Below, piece by piece: positions 7,021-31,365 of a DNA stretch of 34,958 bases. The DNA comes from an uncultured Desulfovibrionaceae bacterium. GTDB lineage: Bacteria > Desulfobacterota > Desulfovibrionia > Desulfovibrionales > Desulfovibrionaceae. The notes below the pieces were generated by a model, which saw nothing but the letters and a program-made list of their open reading frames with translations, made no database searches and was not told where the DNA came from. The DNA is taken from NCBI GenBank assembly GCA_964369335.1, contig CAYJFR010000002.1:1-34958 (forward strand). The letters run 5' to 3'. The translations under genes were made by a program, and so were the position numbers. Numbering within the stretch: the stretch's first letter is position 1; each line of letters begins with the position of its first letter.

Positions 7021-7836
7021 ATGCAACTTGGAAAACAAATTCGCCTTGAACGAATCATCAACCGCCATAGCGGTCGCACCATCCTTGTTCCCATGGATCA
7101 TGGCATAACCCTTGGTCCCATTGACGGACTTGTGGATATGCGCGAAGTGGTCAACGATGTGGCAGAAGGCGGCGCCGATGCCGTACTTATGCATAAAGGG
7201 CTTATTCGTTGCTCTCATCGTAAAAGCGGCAAGGACGTAGGGCTTATTGTACATCTTTCTGCCTCTACTGTTTTAGGGCCTCATGGCAATAGAAAAACCC
7301 TTGTGGCAACTGTGGAAGAAGCTTTGTGCCACGGCGCCGATTGTGTATCTGTGCATGTGAACCTTGGCGACCCTGATGAGCGTCATATGCTAAAAGATTT
7401 TGGTATGGTAGCAGAGTCTTGCGACCGTTGGGGTATGCCCTTACTTGCCATGGTATACGCTCGCGGTCCCCAAATAACCAATGGCTACGATTCTGCCGTA
7501 GTGGCACATTGTGCACGCGTAGGTGTAGAACTTGGCGCTGATATAGTCAAAGTAGTATACACAGGTTCTGTAGAAAGTTTCATGCCTGTGGTTCAAGGTT
7601 GTTGCGTGCCTGTGGTTATTGCTGGCGGCGAAAAAATGGATTCTACCCGTGATATTTTACAAATGGCATACGATTCCGTACAAGCAGGCGGCGCAGGGCT
7701 TTCCATTGGGCGCAATGTTTTCCAACATCCTGACCGCATCAATTTAGTACGTGCTTTAGGCGCCATTGTGCATGAAAATGTCCAAGTGGAAGATGCTCTT
7801 GCTATGATGACTCAAGCACATCAAGGAGCTAAATAA
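7021..7836 (+). CDS. aroA': 2-amino-3,7-dideoxy-D-threo-hept-6-ulosonate (ADH) synthase, class I aldolase (DhnA/FbaB family)
   Basis: 271 aa. The N-terminus [27 protein letters not shown] and the later VVIAGGEK block are class-I aldolase (DhnA-type) features. The specific call comes from its position directly upstream of, and coupled to, a type II DHQ synthase gene, followed by pheA-aroA-tyrA. Confidence 0.8.
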
Positions 7837-7837
7837 C

Positions 7838-8830
7838 ATGGCGTCTGTATGGTTCAAAAGTGTCCCCATGTGCAAAGAAGATGTGACTCTTGCACTGGAA
7901 TCGGGAGTGGACGGGCTTATTGTACCCGCAGAACATGTGCAAAGCGTGGCAGGTCTTGCCCGCGGTATTGTGGTCAGCGCTGAAGAAATGCCTTCAAAGC
8001 TTTTACAAAAAAAAGAAGATGAAGAAGCTTTCGTTGCCGCAGTGCAAAAAGGCAAAAAATGGGTCTTAGCCGCTGGCTGGGAAATTATCCCCATGGAAAA
8101 TATTTTAGCGCAATGCGACTTTGTGGCGGCAGAAGCCAGAAATCTTGACGAAGCGCGTCTTGCCGCAGGAGTGCTAGAACGCGGCGTTAACACTGTCGTA
8201 CTATTACCAGAAGCTTTAGGCGACATGAAAGCCATTGTGAAAGAATTGAAGCTTTCGCAAGGCACTATGGCCTTACAAGAAGCTGTTATCACTAAGGTAC
8301 AATCCATAGGGCTTGGGCATCGCGTATGTGTGGACACCTTATCTCTTTTGCAAAAAGGTCAAGGCATGCTTGTGGGTAATTCCAGCGCTTTCAGCTTTCT
8401 TGTGCATGGGGAAACGGAGCACAATGAATATGTGGCGGCGCGTCCTTTTCGCGTTAATGCCGGTGCTGTGCATGCCTATGCGCAATTACCGCAGGATAAA
8501 ACAACCTATCTTGGCGAGTTACGCGCCGGAGAAAATGTGCTTATAGTGCATGCCAACGGCAATACCTCGCTGGCGGCTGTGGGGCGTGTGAAAATAGAAG
8601 TGCGTCCCATGTTGCTTATTGAGGCTAAAATCCCCGCCCCTCAAGGCAGTACGGAAGATATTGTAGGCACGGTATTTTTACAAAATGCGGAAACCATACG
8701 CTTGACCAAGCCTGGCGGCGAGCCTGTGAGTGTGGTCAATCTCAAGCCAGGTGATGTGGTGTTGTGTCATACAGATATAGCAGGGCGTCACTTTGGTATG
8801 CGTATTGCTGAAGAAATCCAAGAGGTGTAA
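7838..8830 (+). CDS. aroB': 3-dehydroquinate synthase II (archaeal type)
   Basis: 330 aa. The N-terminus VWFKSVP..EDVTLALESGVDGLIVP and overall length match my recollection of archaeal-type DHQ synthase II, and there are no AroB (NAD/Zn) motifs. The ATG lies 1 nt after the aroA' stop. Confidence 0.8.
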   Translation: MASVWFKSVPMCKEDVTLALESGVDGLIVPAEHVQSVAGLARGIVVSAEEMPSKLLQKKEDEEAFVAAVQKGKKWVLAAGWEIIPMENILAQCDFVAAEARNLDEARLAAGVLERGVNTVVLLPEALGDMKAIVKELKLSQGTMALQEAVITKVQSIGLGHRVCVDTLSLLQKGQGMLVGNSSAFSFLVHGETEHNEYVAARPFRVNAGAVHAYAQLPQDKTTYLGELRAGENVLIVHANGNTSLAAVGRVKIEVRPMLLIEAKIPAPQGSTEDIVGTVFLQNAETIRLTKPGGEPVSVVNLKPGDVVLCHTDIAGRHFGMRIAEEIQEV

Positions 8831-8835
8831 GTGTT

Positions 8836-10059
8836 ATGAGTGAAAAAACGACAACACAGCGTCTTATGGATGTACGACAAGAAATCGATGCCGTAGACCA
8901 AGAGCTTTTGCACATGCTCAATAAGCGCGCCATGCTGAGTTTAGAAGTGGGACGCATTAAAGCCGCCGAAAATGGAACCAATCCTCGTGTTCTTGGCGGT
9001 GCTATTTTTAAACCAGAGCGTGAGCACCAAGTGCTTGCCAATCTTGAAGCAGGCAATACAGGTCCTTTACCGCACGCCCATGTGCGCACCATTTGGCGCG
9101 AGATTTTTTCTTCTTCACGGGCTTTGCAAAAGCCGCAAAAAGTGGCCTACCTTGGACCAGAAGGGACATTTTCTTATTTTGCCGGTGTGGAATACTTGGG
9201 AAAAAGCGTGGATATGTGCCCTTTTTCCAACTTTCACGACTTATTCCGCGCTGTGTATGACGGGCGGTGCCAGCTGGGAGTAGTTCCTTTAGAAAATTCT
9301 TTAGAGGGCACTGTGGGGCAATGCTTTGACCTCTTTTATAATTTTTCTGTGTCCATCCAAGCAGAATTACTTTTGCATATCAGCCATTCCTTGCTCAGTC
9401 ATGGTAAATCTTTGAATGATATTACCCATGTATATTCACATCCGCAGGCTTTGGCACAGTGTGATGTGTGGTTGCGCGCCCATGTGCCGTGGGCGGAATT
9501 AGTACCGGCAGAATCCACCGCCGCCGCCGCAAGACGCGCTGCGGAAAATCCCCAATACGCTGCCATAGGTAATATTACTTTGGCAGATTTACACTCCTTC
9601 ACTGTGCTTGCCTCTTCCATAGAGTCCAGTGTGGATAATTGGACGCGCTTTGTTATCATTGCACCGCAAGAAGAAAAAGGCTTGGCGGCGCCTAAACCTC
9701 TGACGGAAGAAACACAAGACTCTCCAAGAGAAGGCGTGAGCTTGCCTAAGAAAACCTCATTGCTTTTCACGCTCATTGATAAGCCTGGTTCTTTATCCAC
9801 TGTGCTCTCAGCCTTTGCCCAATACGGGGTGAATATGCGCAAGTTAGAATCGCGTCCTTTGCGCCTTTCTAGCGGCGAGTGCTGGCGTTATGTGTTTTTT
9901 GCGGATTTGGAGTGTGATTTGCTAGAAACTCAGTATGCCATATTGGTGCATGAAATTCAAAGTATGTGCAATTCATTCCGTATACTTGGGGCATATCCTT
10001 CGGCAGTGCCTCATGTGACCAATGTGACCCAAAAAGAAGAGGGAGAAACTTCATGTTAA
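8836..10059 (+). CDS. pheA: bifunctional chorismate mutase / prephenate dehydratase (P-protein)
   Basis: CM domain RQEIDAVDQELLHMLNKRAMLSLEVGRIK. PDT domain VAYLGPEGTFSY ... VPLENSLEGTV. ACT domain TSLLFTLIDKPGSLSTVLSAFAQYGVNMRKLESRP. Confidence 0.9.
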   Translation: MSEKTTTQRLMDVRQEIDAVDQELLHMLNKRAMLSLEVGRIKAAENGTNPRVLGGAIFKPEREHQVLANLEAGNTGPLPHAHVRTIWREIFSSSRALQKPQKVAYLGPEGTFSYFAGVEYLGKSVDMCPFSNFHDLFRAVYDGRCQLGVVPLENSLEGTVGQCFDLFYNFSVSIQAELLLHISHSLLSHGKSLNDITHVYSHPQALAQCDVWLRAHVPWAELVPAESTAAAARRAAENPQYAAIGNITLADLHSFTVLASSIESSVDNWTRFVIIAPQEEKGLAAPKPLTEETQDSPREGVSLPKKTSLLFTLIDKPGSLSTVLSAFAQYGVNMRKLESRPLRLSSGECWRYVFFADLECDLLETQYAILVHEIQSMCNSFRILGAYPSAVPHVTNVTQKEEGETSC

Positions 10060-11396
10060 CGGTACAAGCTTCTGCATCAAAATCCATTTCGCACAGAACC
10101 CTTATGGGCGCCGCCCTCACACAAGGCGTTTCCACTGTGCATAATGTGCTTATGAGCCGTGATATTCAGTGTACTATGGCAGTACTCACCTCTGCTGGAG
10201 CGCAATTTGAGCCTTTGGAAGACGCACAACAAACAGCAGGCACAGGGGCTTTTGTAGTCACAGGCATGGGCGCGTGTGCCAATTCTGCTCATTATGAACA
10301 AGACGCCATTTCTTGCGACATGCACGAATCAGGTACATCATGCCGTCTGCTTACAGGTATTTTAAGTACGTGTGCTGGACGCTTTCGTATTCATGGCGCG
10401 CCGCGTATGCATGAGCGTCCCATACAAGCCTTGACCCAAGCTTTAACTCAATTGGGCGTTTCCATCACCTTTGAAGACAAGGCTGGCTATCCCCCCCTTA
10501 TTTTAGAAGGAGGCGACTTTCAACAAGATCATATTACCATGGACAGTGACGCTTCTAGTCAATACCTTTCTGGCTTGCTTTTGGCGGCGCCGCGCTCTTC
10601 TCGTGGGCTTGTTATCACCCTTGGAGGCAAAAAAGTTGTTTCTTGGCCATATGTAGGCTTAACTTTACAAACCCTTGAAGATTTTAATATTTCTTTCCAT
10701 GTGGAAGTAAAAGAAGGGCAAGCTTGGAAAAAAGTAGACTGGCGTTTGCTTACAGAAGCTGTCCCACATGCCACGCGTTTTTGTATTGAGCCTAGTCAGT
10801 ATGCTGTGGGTGATTACATAGTAGAAGGAGATTGGTCGGGCGCGTCTTATCTTGTAGCCGCAGGTGCTTTGGGAAAAAATGCGGTGTGCGTGCAGGGCTT
10901 GCGCCAAGATTCCTTGCAAGGGGATAAGGCTATCATGGATATTTTACAGCGTATGGGCGGCGTTTTTGCATGGCAAGAGCAAGGTCTGTGCGTGCAGCCT
11001 TCTGCTTTGCAGGGTATTGAGGTAGATATGGGCTATTGCCCTGACCTTGTGCCTACGGTGGCTGTTATGGCAGCCTTTGCCAAGGGTGTCACCACCATAA
11101 CCAATTGTGCGCATTTACGCATTAAAGAATCAGACCGCATTGCGGCGCCAGCGGCAGAATTGCGTAAATTGGGCGTGCAAGTGGAAGAATTGGACGACGG
11201 TTTACGTATTCACGGTTTGGGACAAGTACCCACCATTGACCCTGCATGTGTGTTTAGCACTCATAATGACCATCGTATGGCCATGAGCTTGGCATTATTG
11301 TCTTTGCATGGGCAAAAAATACAACTTGACGATGCTAAGGTTGTGGAAAAGTCCTTTCCGCATTTTTGGCATGTCTGGAGTCAATTAGATGCCTAA
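10053..11396 (+). CDS. aroA: 3-phosphoshikimate 1-carboxyvinyltransferase (EPSP synthase)
   Basis: The preferred start is ATG 10053 (MLTVQASASKSISHR...), which overlaps the pheA stop in ATGTTAA. The ORF-track start at 9966 lies 90 nt inside pheA. Motifs: ASKSISHR, ESGTSCRLL, KESDRI, HNDHRMAMSLALL. Confidence 0.9.
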   Translation: MLTVQASASKSISHRTLMGAALTQGVSTVHNVLMSRDIQCTMAVLTSAGAQFEPLEDAQQTAGTGAFVVTGMGACANSAHYEQDAISCDMHESGTSCRLLTGILSTCAGRFRIHGAPRMHERPIQALTQALTQLGVSITFEDKAGYPPLILEGGDFQQDHITMDSDASSQYLSGLLLAAPRSSRGLVITLGGKKVVSWPYVGLTLQTLEDFNISFHVEVKEGQAWKKVDWRLLTEAVPHATRFCIEPSQYAVGDYIVEGDWSGASYLVAAGALGKNAVCVQGLRQDSLQGDKAIMDILQRMGGVFAWQEQGLCVQPSALQGIEVDMGYCPDLVPTVAVMAAFAKGVTTITNCAHLRIKESDRIAAPAAELRKLGVQVEELDDGLRIHGLGQVPTIDPACVFSTHNDHRMAMSLALLSLHGQKIQLDDAKVVEKSFPHFWHVWSQLDA

Positions 11397-12135
11397 AAAT
11401 ATTGTCATTGTGGGAAGTAAGGGACGCATGGGAGCATACTTTTTGCGCCGCTTGAAAAAGCTTGACTATACAGTAAGCGGCATTGATATGCCCCTTACTG
11501 AGGATGTGTTTCGCACAGCCTGTGCCAAGGCGCATATGGTTTTGCTTTGCATCCCCGCGCACGCCATGCAAAACGTGCTTGAAAAAATGACACCTCATAT
11601 GCCCAAGCACTGCGTTTTAGCCGATATAACGTCGGTTAAAGTGCAGGCTTTGGCATGTATGAAAAAATATTGGTCTGGTGCCGTTGTGGGCACACATCCG
11701 CTTTTTGGCAATAAGCCACAACGCGGGCATGATTTGCCTGTAACCATTGTTCCTGCAGAAAATACCGCTGAAGAGCCTGTTCTTTTTGTGGAAAAGCTCT
11801 TTACGGATTTAGGCTGTCGTGTGTTTCGAGCCAGCGCTGAACAACATGATAAAGCCATGGCTGCCATTCAAAACTTGAATTTTATTACTTCATTGGCATA
11901 TTTTGCTGCGCTGTCTCAAGATGAAGAATTGCTTCCCTTTTTGACGCCTTCTTTTAAACGTCGTCAAGATGCGGCGCATAAACTTCTTACGGAAGACGCC
12001 GAGCTTTTTGCCGGCTTATATGAAGCCAATCCTTACAGTCAGCAACTTGTGCGTAAATACGGAACCATGCTTAATATAGCCGCTGCGGGGGATATTGACT
12101 TGCTTGTTAACAAAGCCGCTTGGTGGTGGGAATAG
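11389..12135 (+). CDS. tyrA: prephenate dehydrogenase
   Basis: Rossmann N-terminus IVIVGSKGRMGAYF and the conserved VVGTHPLFG block. 248 aa. The start overlaps the aroA stop by 8 nt. Confidence 0.8.
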   Translation: MPKNIVIVGSKGRMGAYFLRRLKKLDYTVSGIDMPLTEDVFRTACAKAHMVLLCIPAHAMQNVLEKMTPHMPKHCVLADITSVKVQALACMKKYWSGAVVGTHPLFGNKPQRGHDLPVTIVPAENTAEEPVLFVEKLFTDLGCRVFRASAEQHDKAMAAIQNLNFITSLAYFAALSQDEELLPFLTPSFKRRQDAAHKLLTEDAELFAGLYEANPYSQQLVRKYGTMLNIAAAGDIDLLVNKAAWWWE

Positions 12136-13167: not shown

Positions 13168-13219
13168 AAGAAAAAATAATAGTGATTTAAGGGAAAGGTC
13201 ATCCTTTTCCTTAAATCAC
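13166..13219 (-). terminator. intrinsic terminator of the minus-strand Dlt-like operon
   Basis: A 17-bp stem, GTGATTTAAGGGAAAGG (13182-13198) with CCTTTTCCTTAAATCAC (13203-13219), has one G-U pair. Read on the minus strand it is followed by TATTATTTTTTCTTTT. Confidence 0.55.
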
Positions 13220-13223
13220 CGTC

Positions 13224-13340: not shown

Positions 13341-14387
13341 TTAGAGATAAGCCCTAGTTAACATTTTTGTAAGCCAAGGTTCCATAACTTTTGCTCCCTT
13401 CTTGTTTAAATGCATACTATCGTAGAAAAGCGCATCCTCTAAAGGTCCCTTTTGCCAAGGGATAAAATGTGCGCCAGTTTCTTTTGCTATTTTATTCATA
13501 TCATTAATAAAGAACTCTCTATACTCAGAAAAAAAAGTCTGATACATAGAGCCTACAGGAAGCTCCACAAAATAAACAGATATTCCTTTAGAAATAAAAC
13601 TTTTTGCAGCTGTGGCAAGTAAGTGTACACTGCCGCTTCTATTTCCTTCTTTTTCCATATAGTATTCAGATTGAGTGAAGTATTTTTGTAAATTCTTTTT
13701 GGTATTTTCAGATGTCCAATATGGACCAAGTCTAGTAGAGAGCCATTTTATATGCTCCATAAAAGTATAGTAAGCTTTTTCTAACTCTAACTTAGGAAAA
13801 CTGATAAATCCGTTATAAATATGCGCAAGAGGGTTTAAGTTTTTCATATTCTTAAGCGCATCATAATTGCTATACCTAAGATTTTCCATGGGAGCATATT
13901 TATAAAAATAAGTATGCGCTTCTTGGCTAGGCAACAAAGTAATGCGTACGTCACCAGTTTTAAGCCAGCCAGAGATTATTTGATGATGGTAGTCTCGTGC
14001 ATAAACTTGTGCAGGTTGTAAAAATATAAAAGCTGTACCAGAAGGCTTAGCAAGACTTGCTAAGCGCAATATGTCAAATAAATTTTGTGTAGGAAAATAT
14101 CCGCGTACTAAGCTTTCTTCAATATTTTTTGGAGGGATATAAGGAGAAAAGAGGTCAACGACAGGAGACCCCCCAATAATATATATATGTTCTTCATCTT
14201 CAGAAGCTGAGTACATATTATAGGCGGCATGCAAAGCAGCTTCTTGTCCTCTTTCAATAGGAATTTTAGACCAAGAACCCACCGTAGATACAATAAATGT
14301 ATTTATATTCGTATGAAAAGTAATCACAAGTGCAAGCTGAATAAGAAAAAATACAATGGAAAGCGGTATAATTTTCTTTAAAGTCAT
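13341..14387 (-). CDS. DltD-like membrane-anchored SGNH-fold acyl/aminoacyl transferase
   Basis: 348 aa with a single N-terminal TM anchor (IIPLSIVFFLIQLALVITF). Candidate nucleophile block IYIIGGSPV. The C-terminal D-x-x-H block FYDSMHLNKKG parallels the DTxHLxxKG block I recall in Firmicute DltD. The start overlaps the MBOAT stop (TAATG). Confidence 0.55.
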   Translation of the reverse strand: MTLKKIIPLSIVFFLIQLALVITFHTNINTFIVSTVGSWSKIPIERGQEAALHAAYNMYSASEDEEHIYIIGGSPVVDLFSPYIPPKNIEESLVRGYFPTQNLFDILRLASLAKPSGTAFIFLQPAQVYARDYHHQIISGWLKTGDVRITLLPSQEAHTYFYKYAPMENLRYSNYDALKNMKNLNPLAHIYNGFISFPKLELEKAYYTFMEHIKWLSTRLGPYWTSENTKKNLQKYFTQSEYYMEKEGNRSGSVHLLATAAKSFISKGISVYFVELPVGSMYQTFFSEYREFFINDMNKIAKETGAHFIPWQKGPLEDALFYDSMHLNKKGAKVMEPWLTKMLTRAYL

Positions 14388-15571
14388 TACTGATTCCTAT
14401 AGTGTAAAAAACAATCGCGCAGTAAAGTATAAGGTTCTGTGAAATTATCAAAAGCTACAAAAATAAACACAGAAGAAACAAAGCTCAGGACAAAAAGGGA
14501 TCCGCCAACCTTTAATACTATTTTACCTACAGATGAACGCTGCATTTGGGTAAAGTATCTTGTTCCTCGTAGCATCGTATAAGCGTTCAAGGCTGTGCCG
14601 TGGCATAAAGCCCATATAAGCCAATTCCATGATATATGATGCCACATTCCTACTACAAGCATACTTGCATATGCGGCAAGCCAAGGTTTTCTTGTTTTTA
14701 TAAGTGTAGGAAAAAAAACATAGTCTCGAGTCCAGTTTGAAAGCGACATATGCCACCGTTGCCAAAACTGAGAAATATTCGTAGCGAGTAAGGGGCGTTG
14801 AAAGTTTTCTACAGTACTGAAACCAAAAAAGCGCGCAAGGGCTTTACTCAGTTCAGTATAAAGCATTAAATCCAGATAGGCATGCAAAAAGCCACCTGCA
14901 CCAAAAATAAACAGTGAAAGAATACTTTTTACTTCTCTAGCAGCGGTAAGTGCGTAGGTATAAGTAAAGGTGTGCATATAGTTATCAATCAGCACTAATT
15001 TCAAAAAAAGGAAAAAGAAAAATGCAGAGCATGCTTTTAGTATCTTACTATGATTGGGAGTGCTATCCACAATTTTCAATTCGTGAAAACGCATAATGGG
15101 ACCAGCAGCCAAAATAGGAGGGAAAAATATCCATGTTATATAATTTAGCGTGTCGAAGTGTATATAACTCTTATTTCCCTTATACACTTCTACCATAAAT
15201 GATATAATTCTAAAAAGATAGTAGGATGAACCAAAGAAAGAAATGGAAAATGCCGCAGTACTATTTGCTGTGGGAGCGACAGTTTTTATGGTAAGCAGCA
15301 AAGTTAGCGTGCAAAAAAAAGCTATTATAAAAAGTTTTTTATTCGTAGCTATTTTTTTTGACAGTATAAAAGTGACTAAAGCAAGTACAGATAATAAAAT
15401 AAAAGACCAAATATCAAGAACTGCTAAGATGATTACACCAGAAGCAATTAAAAAAAGGCGACGAATATGCTCTGTTTGTTGTGCTACATAGTAACAAGTA
15501 AGAAGTCCTATACATGTAGCAAATATCCAAGGGAGAGCAGTATGCACTGCAAAAAATTCTGTAAAACTCAC
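14387..15571 (-). CDS. MBOAT-family membrane acyltransferase (DltB/AlgI-like)
   Basis: 394 aa and polytopic. MBOAT hallmark blocks are FWQRWHMSLSNWTRDYVFFP and VVGMWHHISWNWLIWALCHG (conserved His). Confidence 0.85.
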   Translation of the reverse strand: MSFTEFFAVHTALPWIFATCIGLLTCYYVAQQTEHIRRLFLIASGVIILAVLDIWSFILLSVLALVTFILSKKIATNKKLFIIAFFCTLTLLLTIKTVAPTANSTAAFSISFFGSSYYLFRIISFMVEVYKGNKSYIHFDTLNYITWIFFPPILAAGPIMRFHELKIVDSTPNHSKILKACSAFFFFLFLKLVLIDNYMHTFTYTYALTAAREVKSILSLFIFGAGGFLHAYLDLMLYTELSKALARFFGFSTVENFQRPLLATNISQFWQRWHMSLSNWTRDYVFFPTLIKTRKPWLAAYASMLVVGMWHHISWNWLIWALCHGTALNAYTMLRGTRYFTQMQRSSVGKIVLKVGGSLFVLSFVSSVFIFVAFDNFTEPYTLLRDCFLHYRNQ

Positions 15572-15634
15572 AATACTACTCTTAGCGTAATTTTATTTGT
15601 TACTATATCTTATCTATTTTAATAGATAATTAAA

Positions 15635-16993
15635 TTACAGTATTTTATCAAAAGTATTTAACTCTGAAGCAAGACGCTTTCTATCTACTTTCATAGATTG
15701 TGTGAAATAAAATTCTGGAACTGTGTAATAATAGTGCGGTAATTCATATTTTTCCATTTTTTCACGCAATTTTTCCATAATTTCTTTTCGGGAACATGTA
15801 TATGTTTGTAAAGCCACCAAAGAAATTAAATTGCCTAAAGCTTCATTATAAGTACTGACAAGTATCAAATCGTCAGTATGCAGTATATTTTTAATTTTTG
15901 TTTCTAAATATTTTAAGTTAATCTTATTGCCTAAAACTTTAATTTCATCATTAGAGCGACCCACAAGGTATACTTTATCATCTTCAGTGAATACTATATC
16001 ACCAGAATCATGGCGTTTTTGTGAAGGGCAATATGTTCCGTTAATGATGTAGCCGTCAAATAGATATTTTGAATCCACAAAAATTTTTTCATCTTCAATA
16101 ATAGGTGTATAACCATCTATGGCTGAACCTAAGTCTCCGGTGTATGTAGAATCATTTTCTATGGTATTGATAAAAAATCTTCCTGCTACCTCAGCGAGCC
16201 CATAGGCAATAAAGAGTTTCGCTTGAGGGAATTTGTTTAGTATGCCATTTGCCGCACTTTTTGAAAGTACATCTCCAGAAGAAAAGAAATAATTGGGTGC
16301 ATGCGCTTGTGGCAGTACAGTAATGGCATTTGTTATGTGCACAGGAGAGCCCATTACTCCAAGTGTTTTATATTGGCTGGCAACGTTAGAAAGTTCTTTC
16401 AAGTTGGAAAAATCGTCAAAAATAAGCAGGGAGTCACTCATCCAGTGGCATAAAAAGTGTGAAATAGCACTTACAAGATAAGGAGAAAGCCAAGTTATAT
16501 TCACTTGACTTTCTTTAAATTGTATTTTTTTCAGTACGCTTGACGCATTTATTATAAAATTATCAAAATTATGTACAATTCCTTTGGGAATTCCTGTACT
16601 ACCTGAAGAAAAAACTATGATGTTTCCACGAGGAATAGATGTTTTTACAAAGTGGGGATTTTCTTCTATTTTTATACTATTGTCTTGCGGAGTAAGAATT
16701 TTTGCAGCATATGTAATAGGATGCCCTGTTCCATGAAAGAAATCTCTATTGGGAACAAGCACTCTGTTTCCTTGCTTAATCAATGCTATTAGATAGGCAT
16801 AAAATATTACAGGGTGCATAGTGTTCAACAAAATAAACTCTTCTTTGTTCCATGTTGCTTCATTTTCAAGAAGAGTTTTTTCTGCACGGTCTACTTCTTG
16901 GATAAAGTCTGCTTGGCTCCATACTTTTCCTTGAAATGAGAGAAGTGGCTTAGAAGAATCAGCGTGGCAAACAAGTTGATGCATATTATTCAC
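15635..16993 (-). CDS. stand-alone adenylate-forming enzyme (ANL superfamily, DltA-like carrier-protein ligase)
   Basis: Core motifs appear in order: FSSGSTGIPKG (A3), YGLAEVAG (A5), DSGD (A7), GRSNDEIKVLGNKINLKYLE (A8), SMKVDRKRL (A10 Lys). 452 aa with no C or T domains. The ATG overlaps the carrier-protein stop by 8 nt. Confidence 0.85.
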   Translation of the reverse strand: MNNMHQLVCHADSSKPLLSFQGKVWSQADFIQEVDRAEKTLLENEATWNKEEFILLNTMHPVIFYAYLIALIKQGNRVLVPNRDFFHGTGHPITYAAKILTPQDNSIKIEENPHFVKTSIPRGNIIVFSSGSTGIPKGIVHNFDNFIINASSVLKKIQFKESQVNITWLSPYLVSAISHFLCHWMSDSLLIFDDFSNLKELSNVASQYKTLGVMGSPVHITNAITVLPQAHAPNYFFSSGDVLSKSAANGILNKFPQAKLFIAYGLAEVAGRFFINTIENDSTYTGDLGSAIDGYTPIIEDEKIFVDSKYLFDGYIINGTYCPSQKRHDSGDIVFTEDDKVYLVGRSNDEIKVLGNKINLKYLETKIKNILHTDDLILVSTYNEALGNLISLVALQTYTCSRKEIMEKLREKMEKYELPHYYYTVPEFYFTQSMKVDRKRLASELNTFDKIL

Positions 16994-17234
16994 CTAATTT
17001 CATTTCTATATAATCAGCAACTTTATTTATTGAACCTAGTGTATCAAGGCTAATGCTGAAAGGATCTACAGAAACAGAAAAGTTACTTTCCATAAAAACT
17101 ATAATATGCAAGACATTAAGAGAATCAAGAAATCCTTCTGCAAAAATTTCTTGATCATCGCTATTTACTGCAGCCCCTGCGAGTGTTTCCACTTCTTTAC
17201 GGAGCAGTGTTTTTATTTCTTCTCGTGCGTACAT
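16986..17234 (-). CDS. acyl/peptidyl carrier protein (DltC-like)
   Basis: The preferred start is ATG 17234 (MYAREEIKTLL...), 1 nt after the stop of the upstream micro-ORF (TAA-T-ATG). The track start at 17270 would overlap that ORF. 82 aa, acidic, with a phosphopantetheine-site-type motif GFLDSLNVLHII. Confidence 0.8.
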   Translation of the reverse strand: MYAREEIKTLLRKEVETLAGAAVNSDDQEIFAEGFLDSLNVLHIIVFMESNFSVSVDPFSISLDTLGSINKVADYIEMKLGE

Positions 17235-17235
17235 A

Positions 17236-17409
17236 TTAAAACCCCATATATCTAAAAGATTTAAATGCATTGTCTTTTGAAAGTATAATCAAGAGTACTA
17301 GCCAATATAATATGGATAAACCACACGCTATAGCTATATAGGTGAATTGCTTCCAGAGTTTATTTTGGTTGAGTGTGCATAAAAAAGTTGATTTAACTTT
17401 TTTCATCAT
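17236..17409 (-). CDS. DltX-like single-pass micro-protein
   Basis: Candidate ATGs lie at 17424, 17415, 17409 and 17406. The last two sit in ATGATGAAAAAAGTTAA, which overlaps the flavoprotein stop. One TM helix (FTYIAIACGLSILYWLVLLIIL). The extreme C-terminus FRYMGF-stop has the pattern F-x-Y-x-x-F. Confidence 0.4.
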   Translation of the reverse strand: MMKKVKSTFLCTLNQNKLWKQFTYIAIACGLSILYWLVLLIILSKDNAFKSFRYMGF

Positions 17410-18712
17410 ATCCATCTGCCACATAGTTTGTAGGTGCGCCGTTGATTAATTTTCTACCAAGTACGATGGTTTGCGCTTGTGCAATCACACTGTCAAAATT
17501 ACTTTCATATATTTTTTGACTGTTAAATAAAGCTACCTCTAAGGAAGGCAATAAAATAGTATTATGGCGTATATAGGATGTTACAACCTTAATATTGTGG
17601 AGTTTGTTAACATTCGCTTGAATTTCATTTACGAGTAATGATATAATTGCATTATTGCTTAGCTGGTAATCATCTCGGCGTATAGCTCTAGTCCTCTCCA
17701 TAAACATTTGGTATCTATTGATAATTGCATCATTAGAGTTCACACCCACAATAATAAAAAGATCTGCTCGTGAAATTTTTTCATAGTTTTTTATAATACA
17801 GTCATCTTCTTTTTTTATTATGCAATGGTATTGCCTAGCATCATGAGATTTTCCAAGTTTTGGACAGCTATCACATGCAAGGCAACTTGTAATATTACCT
17901 TGTATTAGTTCTATTATTTCAACATTATGTTTATTTTTCAGCGGTTCAAGATATGAATCTACTATAGCGTGATATTTTCTTTCTGCTGTATCCATAGTCA
18001 TGAGCACGCAAATATTAAGTGCTGGTGCAGGGAGAGTGCTTGCCATTCCTTGGGAAATAAGCTGGCTTGTATAGGTGTTTTTTTTTCCAACTTCATAACA
18101 GCGTTCAAGTCCCCAAGAGTCCTCTAGGGCTTTTGCCTTGTTCCCAGCAACTACCGTACCACCATACTGTGAGGTGCTTGGGCCATTACCCACAGCCATA
18201 GCGGATTGTGACAAAGCGTTCATGAGGGTATATATACACGCTGTCTCCTGACCACCGTTACGTTTTGCGCCAATGGAGAGGGAGCCCATAACTTTATTTT
18301 TTAGTAGATCATTTTCAGCGGCCCACTCATAAAACATACCAACGAGGCTTGACTGATCGCCAAAATACGTAGGGGTGCTTATAATAACGCCTTGCGCTTT
18401 ATTGAGCCGTTGCGTAAGGATTAGATTTTTTTCTTTTTTTATATTAGAGTTGGCAACAAGTTGTGTGTTATTGCTTGAGATGGAAAAAAAACTTCGCAGT
18501 GAGAGTATATCTATATCTGCCCCTTCTTGTCTGGCTGCAAATAAAGCAAAAGCAAGGGCTATATCAGAATTGGCAAAGAGTATTTGGGTATCAGAGATAG
18601 ATTTTTTTAGCTCTTCTTTTGACTTACTTGTGTAAATACATGTAAGTAAAGCATCTAAATGTGTATGCTTGGAACGAATTGAACCTGAAATTCCAAGTAT
18701 AGTTTGACTCAT
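17393..18712 (-). CDS. tandem flavodoxin-fold protein (NADPH-dependent FMN reductase-like + Isf-like Fe-S half)
   Basis: 439 aa. Half 1 carries ILGISGSIRS ... GVIISTPTYFGDQSS ... GAKRNGGQET (FMN-reductase-type blocks). Half 2 repeats the fold and carries CLACDSC plus a fourth Cys 15 residues later, a compact Cx2Cx2C...C cluster as in iron-sulfur flavoproteins. Confidence 0.6.
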   Translation of the reverse strand: MSQTILGISGSIRSKHTHLDALLTCIYTSKSKEELKKSISDTQILFANSDIALAFALFAARQEGADIDILSLRSFFSISSNNTQLVANSNIKKEKNLILTQRLNKAQGVIISTPTYFGDQSSLVGMFYEWAAENDLLKNKVMGSLSIGAKRNGGQETACIYTLMNALSQSAMAVGNGPSTSQYGGTVVAGNKAKALEDSWGLERCYEVGKKNTYTSQLISQGMASTLPAPALNICVLMTMDTAERKYHAIVDSYLEPLKNKHNVEIIELIQGNITSCLACDSCPKLGKSHDARQYHCIIKKEDDCIIKNYEKISRADLFIIVGVNSNDAIINRYQMFMERTRAIRRDDYQLSNNAIISLLVNEIQANVNKLHNIKVVTSYIRHNTILLPSLEVALFNSQKIYESNFDSVIAQAQTIVLGRKLINGAPTNYVADGYDEKS

Positions 18713-18827: not shown

Positions 18828-21035
18828 CTATCTCTCTATTTTACCATATCCAGGTGAAAAAGATTCAGTTGAGAATGCTACACTTTCTTGCCATGTGCAG
18901 GTGTCAACTGCTATAATACTTGTAGGTAAAATACTGAACCGCCTAATAACTAAACCAGTTTTTAGCCGTAGGCAAGCTTTAATTTCGTGCGCACTTGTGT
19001 GTAAAACGCCCGCTTTTGTTTCGTCAGGCATCCAAAAAAGACCGTCCTTTTCAAAATTATTTTGTTCTTCTCCTTTGGGGCATGGGGCAAAGTGAGCGGC
19101 GGTGCTTCTATAAGCGTTACGCATGGTGGGGTGAGGTGTGTAGAGTCCCGTTCCGGAGTCTTTAATGATATCTTGTCCGCAGACAGTGAGTTCAATACCT
19201 AATCTATCGTTATGAGCGTGCCCACCATTTCCATTCTGGCCATTACTTCCTGCATTAAAGAGCGCGTATACATATTTTGAGCGATAAATATGTATATTGG
19301 CGTCAGGGTAATGTAGCCAAGCTCCGTTTTCTGTAAGGTCGATGTCCTGTTTTGCAGTATAGAGAATATACTGTTCTTCATGCATTGGAGCAGAATGAAC
19401 AGGCGCTTCACAAAAGCGTGGTGCAAAAGTAGGCTTTTCAAATTGTGGAATGGGGGCGTTTTTATGTAGTGATTGTATCAATGATGCTTCTAGAGCAAAG
19501 CCTTGTTCATGAAGTAGCGGGTCTTTAAATAAACCAGCAGACATTCCTATAACACCTCGATGGTCAAGCATATTTTCATCGAAGAAAGGTTCATTGCTTT
19601 GGGCATAAGAAGCTATGGCTTGAGTATAGCCTTGCAAATTGCTGTAAGCTTGCTCTGCTTCTAAAGATGAAATCCAATGGCCTTCTACGGTTAAGCGGAA
19701 AAAACGCCCTGAATCATTATCGCCCAACTGTGGTGAAGATCCATCAGGTTTTCGCATTTGCGCGGTGAATAAAGCCGCATGATGTAATTTTTTCCAGACA
19801 TGTTCTTCTAGAAGGTATGTGCCGCTTTTTTTATGTATAGCACTTGTTAAGCGTTGCGGCCAATTCGTGCTTAATAAAGGGTCTTCAGGAAGATACTTTT
19901 TTGAGATATTTTGCAATCTTTCGAGGCGGTGTAAAGGCAGACCGCTTAATAAGGCAGCAGCGCTGAGTGCCATTTCAAGGCTGAGACGATGATAAAAGGT
20001 AGAACCTTCAAAGTTTACTCCATCATCATAAAATTGTTTATCTATTTCGCTGTTGAGTTGGTCTGCAGCAAAAGCAAGCCATGCGTCAGTTTCACTTGTC
20101 GCTTCTAAGCTTGCTGCCACAAATGCAAGTCCACACACATTAGAAAGATAATGATTAGAGGTGAGCACAGACCACCATTCTAAATTATGCGCAATATAAT
20201 GCCCATGCCTGCGTAAGATTTGCCCCATTTCTCTTTTAAAATGCATATCTATAGCTTCAAGCTCCTCTTTTTGTCTAAAGAGGGTATATGCTAAAGCCAT
20301 ATTCGCTGCGCGTATGGCAACATCCATAGTGCACGCCCATTGCGCGCCAAGGCGAGGCGGGTTGGCAGCGGCAAAGTCTAAAACTTGATTTCTAAACTCG
20401 TGAGCAAGCATATTTGCTGTGTGGTCATTGCTTGCAAGCGCTGTAAAAGCCATCTGAGGTAAATGTTGGAGCCGGCCAATTTCCCAAGGGATTTTAATAT
20501 CGGCGCCCATATGTTTTCCTACGGGCTGTTGCTTTGCCCAGTGCCCTTCATCAAAGCGAAAACCACTTTTCACATCTCTTTGCCAGTCTATAAACGCATA
20601 ATCTTTTTGCGTTATGAGACTACGTAGGCGCAAAGTTTCTGCTTTGTGTGCTGAAGGAAGATGTGTTAGCGCATTGGTATGCGCTGTAGTATAGATGTGT
20701 CCATTGACACCAACAGGGGGGGAATTACCGTCCCAACACACCCAACCAGAACCCAATAAATCAAAACGGTGTGCACACCACAGAGAGCAGAGCTTTGCAG
20801 TTGTATTTACAGCTTCTTTATATTGTATTGTATCCACAGAACATAAAGGGTCTCCTATGGTTGCTGGCATAGGCTGTAAGGGCGTGTTAATATTTTCTTG
20901 TTTTTCAGCGCGCGCTTTCTGCCATTCTTTAAGCTTAGATTGCAACTTTATTTTTATTTTATGCATACTTTCGCGTGGAGGAAGAGTGCATAATTTATAA
21001 CCGTAATGGAGGATTTTTTTTATATGTGTTTTCAT
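18828..21035 (-). CDS. heparinase II/III-family protein (no signal peptide)
   Basis: 735 aa. The C-terminal block NGQNGNGGHAHNDRLGIEL (about nt 19201-19240) is the G-H-x-H-x-D-type motif of heparinase II/III-like domains. The N-terminal two-thirds are helical and include WEIGRLQHL. The N-terminus MKTHIKKILHYGYK... has no hydrophobic signal. Confidence 0.65.
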   Translation of the reverse strand: MKTHIKKILHYGYKLCTLPPRESMHKIKIKLQSKLKEWQKARAEKQENINTPLQPMPATIGDPLCSVDTIQYKEAVNTTAKLCSLWCAHRFDLLGSGWVCWDGNSPPVGVNGHIYTTAHTNALTHLPSAHKAETLRLRSLITQKDYAFIDWQRDVKSGFRFDEGHWAKQQPVGKHMGADIKIPWEIGRLQHLPQMAFTALASNDHTANMLAHEFRNQVLDFAAANPPRLGAQWACTMDVAIRAANMALAYTLFRQKEELEAIDMHFKREMGQILRRHGHYIAHNLEWWSVLTSNHYLSNVCGLAFVAASLEATSETDAWLAFAADQLNSEIDKQFYDDGVNFEGSTFYHRLSLEMALSAAALLSGLPLHRLERLQNISKKYLPEDPLLSTNWPQRLTSAIHKKSGTYLLEEHVWKKLHHAALFTAQMRKPDGSSPQLGDNDSGRFFRLTVEGHWISSLEAEQAYSNLQGYTQAIASYAQSNEPFFDENMLDHRGVIGMSAGLFKDPLLHEQGFALEASLIQSLHKNAPIPQFEKPTFAPRFCEAPVHSAPMHEEQYILYTAKQDIDLTENGAWLHYPDANIHIYRSKYVYALFNAGSNGQNGNGGHAHNDRLGIELTVCGQDIIKDSGTGLYTPHPTMRNAYRSTAAHFAPCPKGEEQNNFEKDGLFWMPDETKAGVLHTSAHEIKACLRLKTGLVIRRFSILPTSIIAVDTCTWQESVAFSTESFSPGYGKIER

Positions 21036-21540: not shown

Positions 21541-24500
21541 TTAACCACCAACATTCAAGTTTACTTGTTGTACAAGGATAGTCATATCATTGTCATCGTT
21601 TTTGTATTCTTTGTATTCAACACCGTTCAATGTATGTGAATCTCCAGCAGTCCACTTCTCACTCTGTTCATTGAGTGATTGGTCATCGAACATACCGCCA
21701 TTGTCTTCATAGAGCTTTTGTAAAGCATCAGCGTCGCTAATATTACCACCGAACATAATAATTTCGGTATTGGTAATATTTCCATTGTTGAGCAGGCCTT
21801 TGACTTCTTCTATATTAGCTGCAGCGGCAAGGAGTATGTCCATACCGTCGCCACCGTCTACCAACACATCATTGATATTAATGTTGTCCAATTCGTTTTG
21901 GGTGAATAGATCAAGTTTAATGATGTCATTACCCTTACCACCAAGGATTTGCTTGTCGGTGATTTCAGCAAAGATAATGTCATCGCCGTCGCCACCGTCG
22001 ATGAAGTCAATGCCTTCACCGCCAGTAAGGGTGTCATTACCTATGCCACCATTGAGAATGTCATCACCGTCGCCACCGTCAAGAATATCATTACCTTTGC
22101 CACCGCCAAGATAATCATTGCCTCTGCCGCCGTCGATGGTGTCGTTACCTTGACCACCGGCAAGATGGTCATCACCGTTACCGCCATTGATGGTGTCGCG
22201 ACCGTCGCCACCAAATAAGGTATCATTATAGATGCTGCCTTTCATGGTGTCGTTTCCGTCACCGCCGTGAGCATTGGCACTACCACCTATATAACCTGAG
22301 AAGTCTATGGTGTCGTTTGTTTTACCAAAGGCAAAGTTTTCTACATTTTTAAAGTTTACGTCAACGCCCTGAATACCTGTCATTCCGCCGCCTGCTTGGA
22401 AAACATAAGTATTGTTTTCAACACCTATATTTGTGAGCTTTACAGTGTCATAACCCTCGCCGCCATCAATAGCATTACTGCCAAAACCTTGGCCGGAAAT
22501 AGCGCCATTAATATGGAGGAAATCATCTCCGTCATGGAGGTTAACAATATGCGAGTACACTCCTGAAGTTTTAGCAATCATGGCATTGGTACCGTCTCCT
22601 ATACGTATGACATCGTTAGTGTCTTTGCCATGGATAGTTTCACCAGATATACCTTTTGCTTCGAAGGCTTCATAGGTCTCTTTGATTTTAGGGTTCATGT
22701 CTGTATTGTATCTATCTGTATTCAATGTGACAGATACATCAGAGTTAGAAATGGAGCCATCAGCGTCATAGACTTTTACAGTCATGGTAGTGGTGGTGGG
22801 GTTTTTGAACATTTCTAAGCTATATGTGCCGTTGTCGTTTATGGTGATTTTACCAAGGCCGGCAATGGCTGTTTCTTGACCTACTTCTACCCTAACACCA
22901 TTGATGTCATACGCGCCTTTACCGTCAGCTCCAAAATCAGCTGAAATAGTACCGGTATATAAGTTGCTAGTGCCAAATGGGGTTGAGGTGTCGAGAACTT
23001 CTACATCAGAAGGTACATCGTCGCTGATGTTTGCCTCAATAGTGCCTTCAATGGTGTTGCCATTTTCTAAGGACATGGAGACAGTAAAGTCATCGTCAAG
23101 TTCCCTATCCGCAGAGTGATCTAAACCGCCATCTTTAGGAGTATAGGTATAGGTGAGCTCACCAGTAGCTTTATCATAACCTGTAACGAGAACACTACCA
23201 TATATACCTTCAGCTGCAGCATTGGTAAGCGTACCGTCAGCATTTACAACGACAGTGTCACCAATCTTGATTTCCTTAAAGTCATGCTTGCCAAAGAGTA
23301 ATGTTTTCTCTTCAGAAGCTTGACCATCAAGGCTTTCTGTCACGTTGACTACAGAAGGTGTTTCTATTTCTGTTACAGTAGGTTGATGAACATTAACATT
23401 GACTGTAACTGTATCAATATCACCGTCGCTGTCTTTTGCTTGTAAGGTAATCTCAAGGTCTTCGGGCAATGCTTTGTATTGCAATACTACCCACTGTTGA
23501 CTATCGCTTGTATAGCGTAGGCAAAAAGCAATCTTACCATCTGCGTCATAGCCATTGATTTCTGTTTCTGAGGTGTACTGCAACTTATAGCTTTCAGTAC
23601 CAATGATGAGATTTTCAACAGCCGTTGTGTGCGCATTTACAAAAGGAGGAATATCAGTGCCGTTAATGCTTGCAAAGCTGACTTCAACACCTTCTGCCGT
23701 ATCAGCGCCGTTCCAATCAAGGAAGCCCTTGGCATGAGTTCCATAACCTCCTGCAGAAGGGATGGCGTCATGTGCCATGCCATAGTCATGGATAGCGTCT
23801 GTAGCATCAATGGCGGTGTCATAAGCGCCACCTACAATCTTCAAATCTATGCCATCATCAACTATATCTACTTTAATGCTTGCTTCAGAGTCTCTGCCTT
23901 CAAAGTCAGTAATAGTCACTTCAAAGTTTTCTACACCTTGAGCAGTGTCGCCTGAAGTGCTGTGGTCATAAGGTTTGGTTTGTGTGTACGTGTATTTGAT
24001 GCTGCCATTGGTGTATACACCGTCACTATTTTTAGAGCCCATGTCCACTGCATCAATGGTCAAATAACCATTAGAGCCTTCAATCTGTGATACAGGTTTG
24101 CCATCACTATCAGTAATAACAGGCTTGCCGTTGTCATCAACAGTTATGGTGAAAGTTTTTCCAGAAATAGTAATGGTCAGCGCGCTTTGCCCTGTACCAA
24201 ACTCATCTGTCATATTTGTGTTAAAAGCAAAGCTTCCTTGTGCTTGTGCCAATGCATCCGCAGGAGCAGATGTAGATGGCTGAGTTTCATCATTATTATC
24301 TTTAGTAGCTGCATCTGCGTCGTATGTAGTGAGCACTTTTTCGGTAGCATCTGTAAATTCTGGAGGCTCATTTTCACCTTTAACAGTGACAATAACTTCC
24401 TTAGAATCCCAAGCGCCTTTTTCGTCTTGCACGTAAACGGTGAAGCTTTCAGTACGGGTTTCGCCTTTGTTGAGCTCTTGCACCTTTTCGTATAAAGCAA

Positions 24501-30500: not shown

Positions 30501-30774
30501 CTGGCATAAGGGTTTCATCTAGGCCGGCAAAGAATGCCTCACCGTCGATTTCTGCACCACTAATAACAAAGGTGGGCATATTTTCGGCATTATACGCTAC
30601 GTAAAAGTCTGTTAAAACAATGCTTGAGCCATCGTCAAAAGACATGACAAGATTGTCTTCAGCACGAGTCAGTGTGGCATCGCCAGAGTCAAACTCAAAG
30701 ACTAAACGATCTTCAGCGTTGGGGGTGAGGGCAACAGTTCCTGCTTCTGGTTTTTTCAATAAAATGTCGGCCAT
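21541..30774 (-). CDS. giant (3077 aa) VCBS/Ig-like-repeat RTX adhesin, T1SS substrate, LapA-like
   Basis: No Sec signal. At least 7 VCBS-type units (YG.L.ID..G.YTY.L ... F.V.V.D..GAW....V.V.V.G.ND.P) alternate with Ig/cadherin-like modules. The C-terminus has a GGxGxD nonapeptide block followed by about 140 aa of acidic tail. AAGGA RBS 6 nt upstream of the ATG. Confidence 0.9.
21961..22269 (-). repeat. RTX calcium-binding nonapeptide repeats
   Basis: Translation: [103 protein letters not shown]. Two further degenerate copies lie downstream ([16 protein letters not shown]). Confidence 0.9.
24991..25095 (-). repeat. 21-nt (heptad) tandem repeat inside the adhesin coiled-coil insert
   Basis: Heptads with Ile in register: IDQAKQD / IEDAKQD / IADAKQD (core, 25033-25095), then degenerate IADKNSE / INKEQDA. 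The DNA units are near-identical (gctaaacaaga(t/c)att...). Confidence 0.85.
26476..29787 (-). repeat. about 1.0-1.1 kb super-repeat of the adhesin (paired Ig-like + VCBS modules)
   Basis: Four homologous VCBS segments are spaced 987-1098 nt apart. They are visible as four mutually similar antisense shadow ORFs (26476-26712, 27574-27807, 28588-28803, 29575-29787). Two sense-strand copies are very similar: [26 protein letters not shown]...[19 protein letters not shown] and [27 protein letters not shown]...[19 protein letters not shown]. Confidence 0.8.
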
Positions 30775-31293: not shown

Positions 31294-31365
31294 CTCTCTA
31301 TTTGTGGTGGCATTACATGAGGGTAGAGGCTGCTCGTTTGTTTTACACATTATTAAGGAGAATGT

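Follow-up and report, generated by a model that had tools for sequence, protein, structure and literature searches.

We analyzed a stretch of 34,958 nucleotides (nt) from an uncultured Desulfovibrionaceae bacterium (contig CAYJFR010000002.1), referred to in its entirety as the window, and found at positions 13341-18712 a cassette of six tightly packed open reading frames (ORFs) on the minus strand. They encode a flavoprotein, a micro-protein, a carrier protein, a ligase of the ANL type, an MBOAT and an SGNH-like protein. The ORFs and their junctions were checked directly in the sequence and form the single packed unit that an earlier sequence-only reading of this DNA had described. The flavoprotein gene (17393-18712, minus strand; 439 amino acids, aa) starts 7 nt 3' of a GAGG Shine-Dalgarno motif, and its stop is overlapped by 14-17 nt by the start of the micro-ORF (17236-17409, minus strand; 56/57 aa), an overlap that had likewise been pointed out. 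The likely start of the micro-ORF is ATG 17409 or 17406, in agreement with the 'MMKFVK' start of a homologue in the related locus L088, and it ends at 17236. A TAA-T-ATG junction leads into the gene for the carrier (16986-17234, minus strand; 82 aa), which is followed by that of the ligase (15635-16984, minus strand). Read from ATG 16984 the ligase comprises 449 aa, while a start at GTG 16993 would yield 452 aa and produce the 8-nt overlap with the carrier gene that the sequence-only reading had assumed. Such an overlap is possible, but ATG 16984 is probably the true start, because it forms a second TAA-T-ATG junction behind an AGGTGA Shine-Dalgarno motif and agrees with the starts of the homologues. 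After a gap of 63 nt follows the MBOAT gene (14387-15571, minus strand; 394 aa), which is joined to the SGNH-like gene (13341-14387, minus strand; 348 aa) by a TAATG in which one base is common to stop and start. The first TAA-T-ATG, the gap and the TAATG had all been predicted and are all present.

The six genes form one compositional block, a low-GC island in the window, with a G+C content (GC) of 29-37% and a third-position value (GC3) of 19-31%. The flanking genes, for aromatic amino acid biosynthesis, an outer-membrane protein (OMP), a heparinase-like protein and an adhesin, have a GC of 42-49% and a GC3 of 38-44%, and the low GC of the cassette suggests that the island was acquired recently by horizontal transfer. 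An AT-rich hairpin followed by a T-run at 13183-13222, 3' of the last cassette gene, was read from the sequence as a candidate terminator and may tentatively be taken as a bidirectional one that serves both the cassette and the convergent OMP gene. It was not called by the consensus terminator scan; note that the promoter and terminator consensus scans of the window remained at chance level and were uninformative.

Besides the window, all six genes were found together in 11 independent related loci, wherever the contig permits it; at least six diderm lineages are represented. Membership is kept in these loci while the order is shuffled into at least six arrangements. With F for flavoprotein, X for micro-protein, C for carrier, A for ligase, B for MBOAT and D for the SGNH-like protein, the window and the loci L087, L088 and L090 read F-X-C-A-B-D, and L006, L008 and L009 read F-X-C-A-D-B. 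L005, whose contig starts at X, continues as X-C-A-D-B, L002 has D-C-A-B-X with a convergent F, L003 has D-B-X-C-A-F, L089 has X-D-B-C-A-F, and L010 shows X-A-C-D-B, its F being incomplete and located on the other strand. L001, the closest relative, reads F-X-C-A-B, and its D is displaced by insertion sequence elements, with transposase genes of the IS110 and ISL3 types separating the DltD-like gene from the remainder of the cassette. The X-C-A-B-D order emphasized by the sequence-only reading is thus present in the window, but it does not define the system, as the relatives use at least five other orders. Co-occurrence is also apparent from at least 13 pairs of MBOAT and flavoprotein homologues that have an equal-sized longest contig in both match lists.

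The family is rare. A collection of 5.8 billion proteins held about 47 MBOAT relatives at 39-60% identity, and a scan of one genome per species turned up close copies, with 35% identity or more, in 6 of 185,579 species, a figure that is a lower bound on the true distribution, as the scan used two peptide patterns only. The six genomes belong to Desulfovibrionaceae (60% identity), Bacteroidetes, Desulfobacterales, Leptospirales and, in two cases, Bdellovibrionales; all are diderm and metagenome-assembled. Two Burkholderiales genomes carry copies at 31-34% identity. Plasmids contained no cassette, with 0 matches to the flavoprotein and only distant ones (28% identity) to the MBOAT. We attribute the fact that the family has escaped study to its hosts, because all genomes that bear the cassette are metagenome-assembled and uncultured. 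Literature searches found no published description of the six-gene arrangement, and no NCBIfam model is passed by any of the six proteins.

The MBOAT passes the Pfam MBOAT model with an E-value of 2.5e-14, and its sole NCBIfam match is DltB (TIGR04091, E 3e-32), at 112.5 bits against a cut-off of 375. In the family alignment the FWQRWH and WHH motifs and residues H274, H311 and H324 are invariant. The members measure about 390-410 aa and none of them ends in an FxYxxF motif, whereas 68 of the 70 distant MBOATs from the same scan, proteins of about 500 aa with some 24-32% identity, carry a fused C-terminal motif of the F-I-Y-F-Q-F type. As judged from its sequence the MBOAT therefore has the architecture of DltB, being short, with the catalytic histidines and without a fused shuttle, but it is not a DltB equivalog.

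The motif that the MBOAT lacks is found on the micro-protein, which consists of one hydrophobic, presumably transmembrane helix and a C-terminus reading FRYMGF. The window and 12 of 12 independent related loci, two of which have FRYVGF, each contain a small ORF with FRY(M/V)GF at its end. FxYxxF is the acyl-shuttle motif of DltX, whose tyrosine takes D-alanine from DltB and hands it to DltD (PMC12148441). The micro-protein has no match in Pfam, DltX included, even at an E-value of 10, so that its predicted correspondence to DltX is one of architecture and motif only (FRYMGF for FxYxxF). A DltB/DltX-type split combined with a carrier protein has been described as absent from other MBOAT pathways (PMC12148441).

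The SGNH-like protein has an N-terminal hydrophobic anchor and a putative triad of Ser74, Asp323 and His326, and it is the component that is hardest to place by sequence. Pfam DltD matches below threshold (E 0.009; 15.8 against 22.7 bits), as does Pfam GDSL, a word-indexed homologue search returned no match, and a profile search of the PDB gave only the acetyltransferase 6vjp at an E-value of 0.19, in the D-x-x-H-L region. An exhaustive search of 1.84 billion representative proteins retrieved six homologues at E<1e-3, and on the alignment of these an AlphaFold2 model was built. Its predicted local distance difference test score (pLDDT) of 64 is moderate overall, with a confident beta/alpha core. 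A Foldseek search of the PDB with this model returned DltD structures in all of the top 11 positions (among them 7dxm, 6pfx, 6o93 and 3bma; E 9e-5 to 5e-3), followed by GDSL/SGNH esterases. The GGS motif with Ser74 and the Asp323-x-x-His326 motif are invariant in two independent alignments. The modelled protein thus combines the features of DltD, an anchored SGNH fold and a predicted Ser/His/Asp triad. A precomputed Pfam annotation lists the DltD-like homologue in L001 (3718-4776) under PF27429 'LB_356' (weak), a family that may already group these proteins.

The carrier passes Pfam PP-binding narrowly (21.1 bits against a cut-off of 20.8), its DSL phosphopantetheine site is invariant in the family alignment, and it is 43-67% identical to its relatives. 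The best NCBIfam matches are the acyl carrier protein (ACP) of the OlsHI-type ornithine-lipid pathway (E 1e-8) and DltC (E 1e-6), neither of which comes near its cut-off; the two DltC models reach 28.5 of 68 and 19 of 52 bits. On these scores the product would be classed as a carrier protein outside the DltC equivalogs. An OlsHI ornithine-lipid pathway was considered and rejected, as the similarity is confined to the carrier and weak, and that pathway uses a GH3-like enzyme.

The ligase matches Pfam AMP-binding and contains the motifs A3 (SSGSTGIPKG), A5 (YGLAE), A7 (SGD) and A8 (GRSNDEIKVLG) and the A10 lysine, all invariant in the family alignments. Its best single-sequence match in the PDB is Staphylococcus aureus DltA (7vhv, E 5e-14). 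With a profile of 13 family members, MenE (3ipl, 139 bits), DltA (7vhv, 129 bits) and the LgrA adenylation domain (116 bits) lie at similar distances, and the DltA model TIGR01734 yields 68.7 bits against a cut-off of 559.85. In DltA and in the adenylation domains of non-ribosomal peptide synthetases, the aspartate of the A4 motif (FDxS; FDLSV in DltA) binds the alpha-amino group of the substrate. The corresponding region of the cassette ligases reads PYLVSAxSHF, with invariant P, Y, S and H, and holds no acidic residue in any of the 13 family members; the DltA aspartate aligns with a leucine in the HMMER alignment or with a serine in another register. In addition, the D-alanine-selecting cysteine of the DltA FCGE motif aligns with serine in all family ligases. 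By alignment, neither of the two specificity determinants of DltA, the alpha-amino-binding aspartate and the D-alanine-selecting cysteine, is found in the ligase. The case for a missing aspartate turns on an A4 region devoid of acidic residues rather than on an exact residue match, and for this reason we infer that the donor is probably not a free alpha-amino acid. A gene of the glyoxalase/VOC family adjoins the ligase gene of the distantly related locus L084 (5816-6220) and directly follows the DltD-like gene in L087 (8351-8776); its product may be a recurring accessory enzyme that acts on the acyl substrate.

Taken together, the five Dlt-like roles assigned by the sequence-only reading, a DltX-like micro-protein, a DltC-like carrier, a DltA-like ligase, a DltB-like MBOAT and a DltD-like anchored protein, survive the tests by profile, structure and motif. 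The invariant tail upholds the first and the Pfam match together with DltC among the best NCBIfam matches the second, the best PDB match supports the third and the only NCBIfam match the fourth, and the Foldseek result for 13341-14387 is a DltD/SGNH-like fold. Two outcomes named there as refuting the reading, a protein at 13341-14387 unlike DltD/SGNH and an already characterized six-gene arrangement, were not encountered.

The sixth component has no counterpart among these roles. The N-terminal half of the flavoprotein is a WrbA/FMN-reductase-like domain for flavin mononucleotide (FMN), and the C-terminal half bears four invariant cysteines. The protein passes Pfam FMN_red (53 bits against a cut-off of 24, E 3e-14). 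An alignment of 43 sequences shows as invariant the FMN loop G10-S11-x-R13, the GGQET motif (153-157) and C277, C280, C283 and C297, that is, a Cx2Cx2C motif plus a fourth cysteine. The AlphaFold2 model (pLDDT 89, predicted template modelling score 0.90) consists of two flavodoxin-like halves. Foldseek matches in the PDB are WrbA, PnpB and flavodoxin-like proteins that each cover about half of the chain, with template modelling (TM) scores of about 0.3 on the query length and 0.6-0.76 on targets of some 170-210 aa; no two-domain counterpart was found in the PDB. With a flavodoxin-like fold, an FMN phosphate loop, GGQET and a compact cysteine motif for a [4Fe-4S] cluster, the protein resembles the Isf and WrbA/FMN-reductase families and would be assigned to Isf/FMN_red with predicted cofactors. 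It differs from them in that it fuses two domains, with the FMN motifs in the first and the four cysteines in the second, and in that it is genetically tied to an acylation pathway. The sequence-only reading had seen a two-domain flavodoxin-fold protein with Cx2Cx2C coupled to the cassette, and alignment, model and conservation all bear this out.

As evidenced by the related loci, this protein is the constant sixth member of the cassette family: it adjoins the cassette in each of the 11 further loci that allow an assessment. The strongest evidence that it belongs to the system is that membership is kept through the rearrangements of gene order. The flavoprotein family exceeds that of the MBOAT in size; its homologues number more than 260 and carry no annotation other than 'multimeric flavodoxin WrbA'. 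Distant members in the range of 34-39% identity occur in L084 (6254-9380), accompanied by an ANL ligase of another kind and a protein of 79 aa, next to a NeuB/cytidine monophosphate (CMP)-sugar cluster of the nonulosonic acid type without an MBOAT, in L086 (9001-10410), alone beside glycosyltransferases, sulfotransferases and Wzy, and in L085 (8001-9353), in an unrelated context beside a methyltransferase. The family may have a wider role in glycan decoration. Its function in the cassette would most plausibly be a redox step on the carrier-bound acyl group or a precursor, and that it acts on the acyl donor is in our estimate a serious possibility somewhat short of an even chance.

Indications for the acceptor come from the surroundings of the cassette. 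In five related loci (L002, L003, L087, L088 and L090) it lies inside clusters of the O-antigen/capsule type. These comprise a Wzx-type flippase, WbpABDE-like nucleotide-sugar enzymes, amidotransferases and glycosyltransferases in L003, a Wzm/Wzt ABC transporter, GT4 enzymes and a heparinase II/III-like protein in L088, DegT, WbqC, methyltransferases and GT2/GT4 enzymes in L090, and sugar epimerases or dehydratases, glycosyltransferases and aminotransferases in L002 and L087. Because these five loci embed the cassette in glycan clusters, we favor a surface polysaccharide, O-antigen or capsule-type, as the probable acceptor. Of such surroundings the window itself has kept only a heparinase-like gene. 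It encodes an OMP beta-barrel, and the related loci stem from diderm lineages.

Directly upstream of the cassette lies a gene for a heparinase II/III-like protein (18828-21035, minus strand; 735 aa) with the Pfam domains Hepar_II_III_N and Hepar_II_III_C and no obvious signal peptide. A homologue with 39% identity is located two genes from the cassette in L088 and absent from the other cassette loci, and weaker homologues are found near ordinary MBOATs in L014 and L030. The protein may act in the pathway of the acceptor polysaccharide, as a lyase or in the manner of a uronate epimerase, without being a core member of the system. Further upstream, 21541-30774 (minus strand) encodes an RTX-type adhesin of 3077 aa that combines many cadherin/VCBS-like repeats with a long coiled coil and has GGxGxD repeats at its C-terminus; genes for type I secretion were not seen in the window. 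None of the relatives has this adhesin conserved beside the cassette. Of the acceptor candidates named in the sequence-only reading, a surface polysaccharide is therefore favored by the contexts of the relatives, whereas the adhesin has no specific evidence in its favor.

From the observed gene content, motifs, folds and conserved co-occurrence we infer the chemistry, the donor class, the acceptor and the role of the flavoprotein as follows. In the cytoplasm, the ANL ligase would adenylate a small carboxylic acid, probably no alpha-amino acid, and load it onto the phosphopantetheine arm of the carrier. The Fe-S flavoprotein, placed in the cytoplasm because it has no signal sequence, would carry out a redox step on the acyl unit or its precursor. 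By way of the short MBOAT the acyl group would then cross the inner membrane and reach the tyrosine of the periplasmic FRYMGF tail, and the anchored SGNH-fold protein would take it up on Ser74 and esterify a periplasmic acceptor, the likeliest being a polysaccharide of the O-antigen/capsule type. That the cassette encodes a relay of the Dlt type is in our view highly probable. A six-component, carrier-dependent relay that acylates an extracytoplasmic polymer and, in spite of its Dlt-like build, constitutes a separate family is the reading that we prefer, and we rate it as rather probable. Only tentatively do we propose the most specific form of this reading, in which a second family of carrier-dependent MBOAT/micro-protein/SGNH systems, native to diderms, places onto O-antigen or capsule a non-amino acyl group that was redox-tailored on its carrier by the tandem Fe-S flavoprotein.

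The presence of all five Dlt roles raises the question whether the cassette simply carries out D-alanylation of lipopolysaccharide or another outer-membrane component against cationic peptides, in the manner of Dlt or Dra and with the flavoprotein as a bystander. DltA as the best single-sequence PDB match of the ligase and DltB as the only NCBIfam match of the MBOAT fit this view, and diderm dlt loci are documented (PMC5541007; Taneja et al. 2013, as cited in PMC9410548). Nevertheless we consider it quite unlikely, as the components fall far below the equivalog cut-offs (69 against 560 bits for DltA, 112 against 375 for DltB, 28 against 68 for DltC), no acidic residue stands in place of the aspartate of FDLSV, the cysteine of FCGE is a serine throughout the family, and MenE outscores DltA with the family profile. 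Moreover, retention of the flavoprotein through at least six gene orders is unlike the behavior of a bystander. A still smaller chance, amounting to a very improbable case, is given to two modules that travel together, where ligase, carrier and flavoprotein would supply acyl groups in the cytoplasm for the N-acylation of nucleotide sugars and MBOAT, micro-protein and SGNH-like protein would form a separate O-acetylation system fed by acetyl-coenzyme A (CoA). The arrangement in L084, in which a ligase, the 79-aa protein and a flavoprotein stand beside the NeuB/CMP-sugar genes with no MBOAT, points in this direction, and acetyl-CoA is the usual donor of MBOAT-SGNH pairs (PMC12148441). The L084 ligase, however, belongs to another subfamily, with 25% identity over 115 residues, and the MBOAT of the cassette is of the short, split type so far known only from the carrier-dependent Dlt system. 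In addition, the micro-protein gene mostly lies directly 5' of the carrier gene, and all six genes stay together in every locus.

A relay of the proposed kind might also serve a protein or lipid, be it the 3077-aa RTX adhesin, another OMP, or, as with AlmEFG, lipid A or an aminolipid. The cassette in the window indeed lies between an OMP gene and the heparinase-like gene, followed by the adhesin, with no glycosyltransferases, and the best NCBIfam match of the carrier is an ornithine-lipid ACP. The lack of conservation of the adhesin beside the cassette and the five loci inside glycan-biosynthesis clusters make such an acceptor unlikely. Lipid A acylation of the AlmG type is carried out at the cytoplasmic face by a lysophospholipid acyltransferase (LPLAT) and is not known to involve an MBOAT/SGNH pair. 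The characterized bacterial MBOAT-SGNH pairs, for their part, all acylate glycopolymers (PMC12148441). Several observations weigh against the six-component relay onto a surface glycan that we prefer. In the window the cassette has no flanking cluster for glycan synthesis, with only the heparinase-like gene and the giant adhesin nearby. The SGNH-like protein was modelled with no more than moderate confidence (pLDDT 64), and the TM-scores of this model against DltD are low, at 0.37-0.43. The register of the ligase A4 alignment, which lies in a divergent region, shifts by two residues between templates. Finally, the distant flavoprotein homologues in L085 and L086 occur without MBOAT or ligase, so that this family is not exclusive to the cassette, and the reaction of the flavoprotein is the least constrained part of the model.

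Among known systems, DltXABCD of the Firmicutes is closest, sharing the five roles and the split architecture of ANL ligase, small carrier, short MBOAT, FxYxxF micro-protein and anchored SGNH transferase, with DltA, DltB and DltD as the best or only specific matches of the respective cassette proteins. The cassette differs in the distance of its components from the Dlt equivalogs, in a ligase that lacks both the alpha-amino-binding aspartate and the D-alanine-selecting cysteine, in the FRYMGF form of the shuttle motif and in the addition of a constant tandem Fe-S flavoprotein; its hosts are diderms presumably without teichoic acid, and its context is that of O-antigen/capsule-type clusters. 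On the sequence evidence, it would work like Dlt but stands outside the Dlt equivalog families. The sequence-only reading had called the locus a non-canonical, Dlt-like one, and the comparison of the ligase specificity pocket with that of DltA, together with the constancy of the flavoprotein, strengthens this claim. We know of no flavoprotein component in the diderm dlt-like loci, Bordetella dra and dltXABCD of Dickeya and Pectobacterium, which resemble the cassette, as predicted here, in the carrier-dependent, MBOAT/DltD-type acylation of a Gram-negative envelope component. Both are described as D-alanine systems homologous to dlt (PMC5541007; Taneja et al. 2013, as cited in PMC9410548).

As proposed for the cassette, the acetyl-CoA-dependent pairs PatA/PatB, AlgI/AlgJ/AlgX and WssH/WssI pass an acyl group from an MBOAT via a tyrosine shuttle and an SGNH serine to a glycan in the diderm periplasm. 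Unlike the cassette, they fuse the shuttle motif to an MBOAT of about 500 aa, and they use acyl-CoA without carrier, ligase or micro-protein (PMC12148441). As defined in the same work (PMC12148441), the broad class of MBOAT-SGNH acyl-Tyr relays comprises an MBOAT, an FxYxxF tyrosine shuttle and an SGNH transferase encoded together, and the cassette falls within it. Vibrio AlmEFG has in common with the cassette that an ANL ligase and a carrier protein feed a modification of the diderm envelope, while the transferase is of a different class. AlmG is an enzyme of the lysophospholipid-acyltransferase type that acts on lipid A, and AlmEFG is not known to contain an MBOAT, an SGNH protein or a micro-protein. 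The tetronate set of Vibrio cholerae O1 includes a carrier protein, an ATP-dependent ligase-like enzyme and redox enzymes, the latter from other families; it is not known to include an MBOAT, a micro-protein or an SGNH protein, and its acyl transfer is regarded as a cytoplasmic N-acylation of perosamine by a soluble acyltransferase. With the genes wbeK-O (VC0248-VC0252) it nevertheless offers a precedent for an O-antigen locus with a gene set dedicated to an unusual acyl substituent (PMC3441752). Among all systems compared, a constant Fe-S flavoprotein is found only in the cassette.

The remainder of the window contains an operon for aromatic amino acid biosynthesis (7021-12135, plus strand), in which a DeoC-family aldolase and 3-dehydroquinate synthase II are followed by chorismate mutase/prephenate dehydratase, EPSP synthase and prephenate dehydrogenase. 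Its early shikimate steps are of the alternative, archaeal type, consistent with a Desulfovibrio-like host. The right-end 4 kb or so were considered as an unusual ORF-free stretch, which was rejected, as an open frame of 1200 aa (31357-34956, plus strand) runs off the contig there. Its product is very hydrophobic and resembles two fused antiporter-like subunits of the NuoL/NuoM/Mrp type. No Rfam family or tRNA was found at this end of the window.

According to current accounts, a carrier protein and a DltX-like micro-protein are both missing from MBOAT pathways other than Dlt (PMC12148441). The cassette family represents a clear second case of an MBOAT with both, in diderms, with a ligase that is probably not built for D-alanine and with an apparently obligatory Fe-S flavoprotein. 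If the proposed relay is correct, it would widen the chemistry that can be delivered to cell surfaces by acyl-Tyr transfer, and a redox step on the carrier would be without counterpart in any known pathway of envelope acylation. It would also assign a function to a family of two-domain flavoproteins that is at present annotated only as 'multimeric flavodoxin WrbA', and it would add a new modification of surface glycans, of relevance for phage receptors, serotypes and resistance to antimicrobial peptides.

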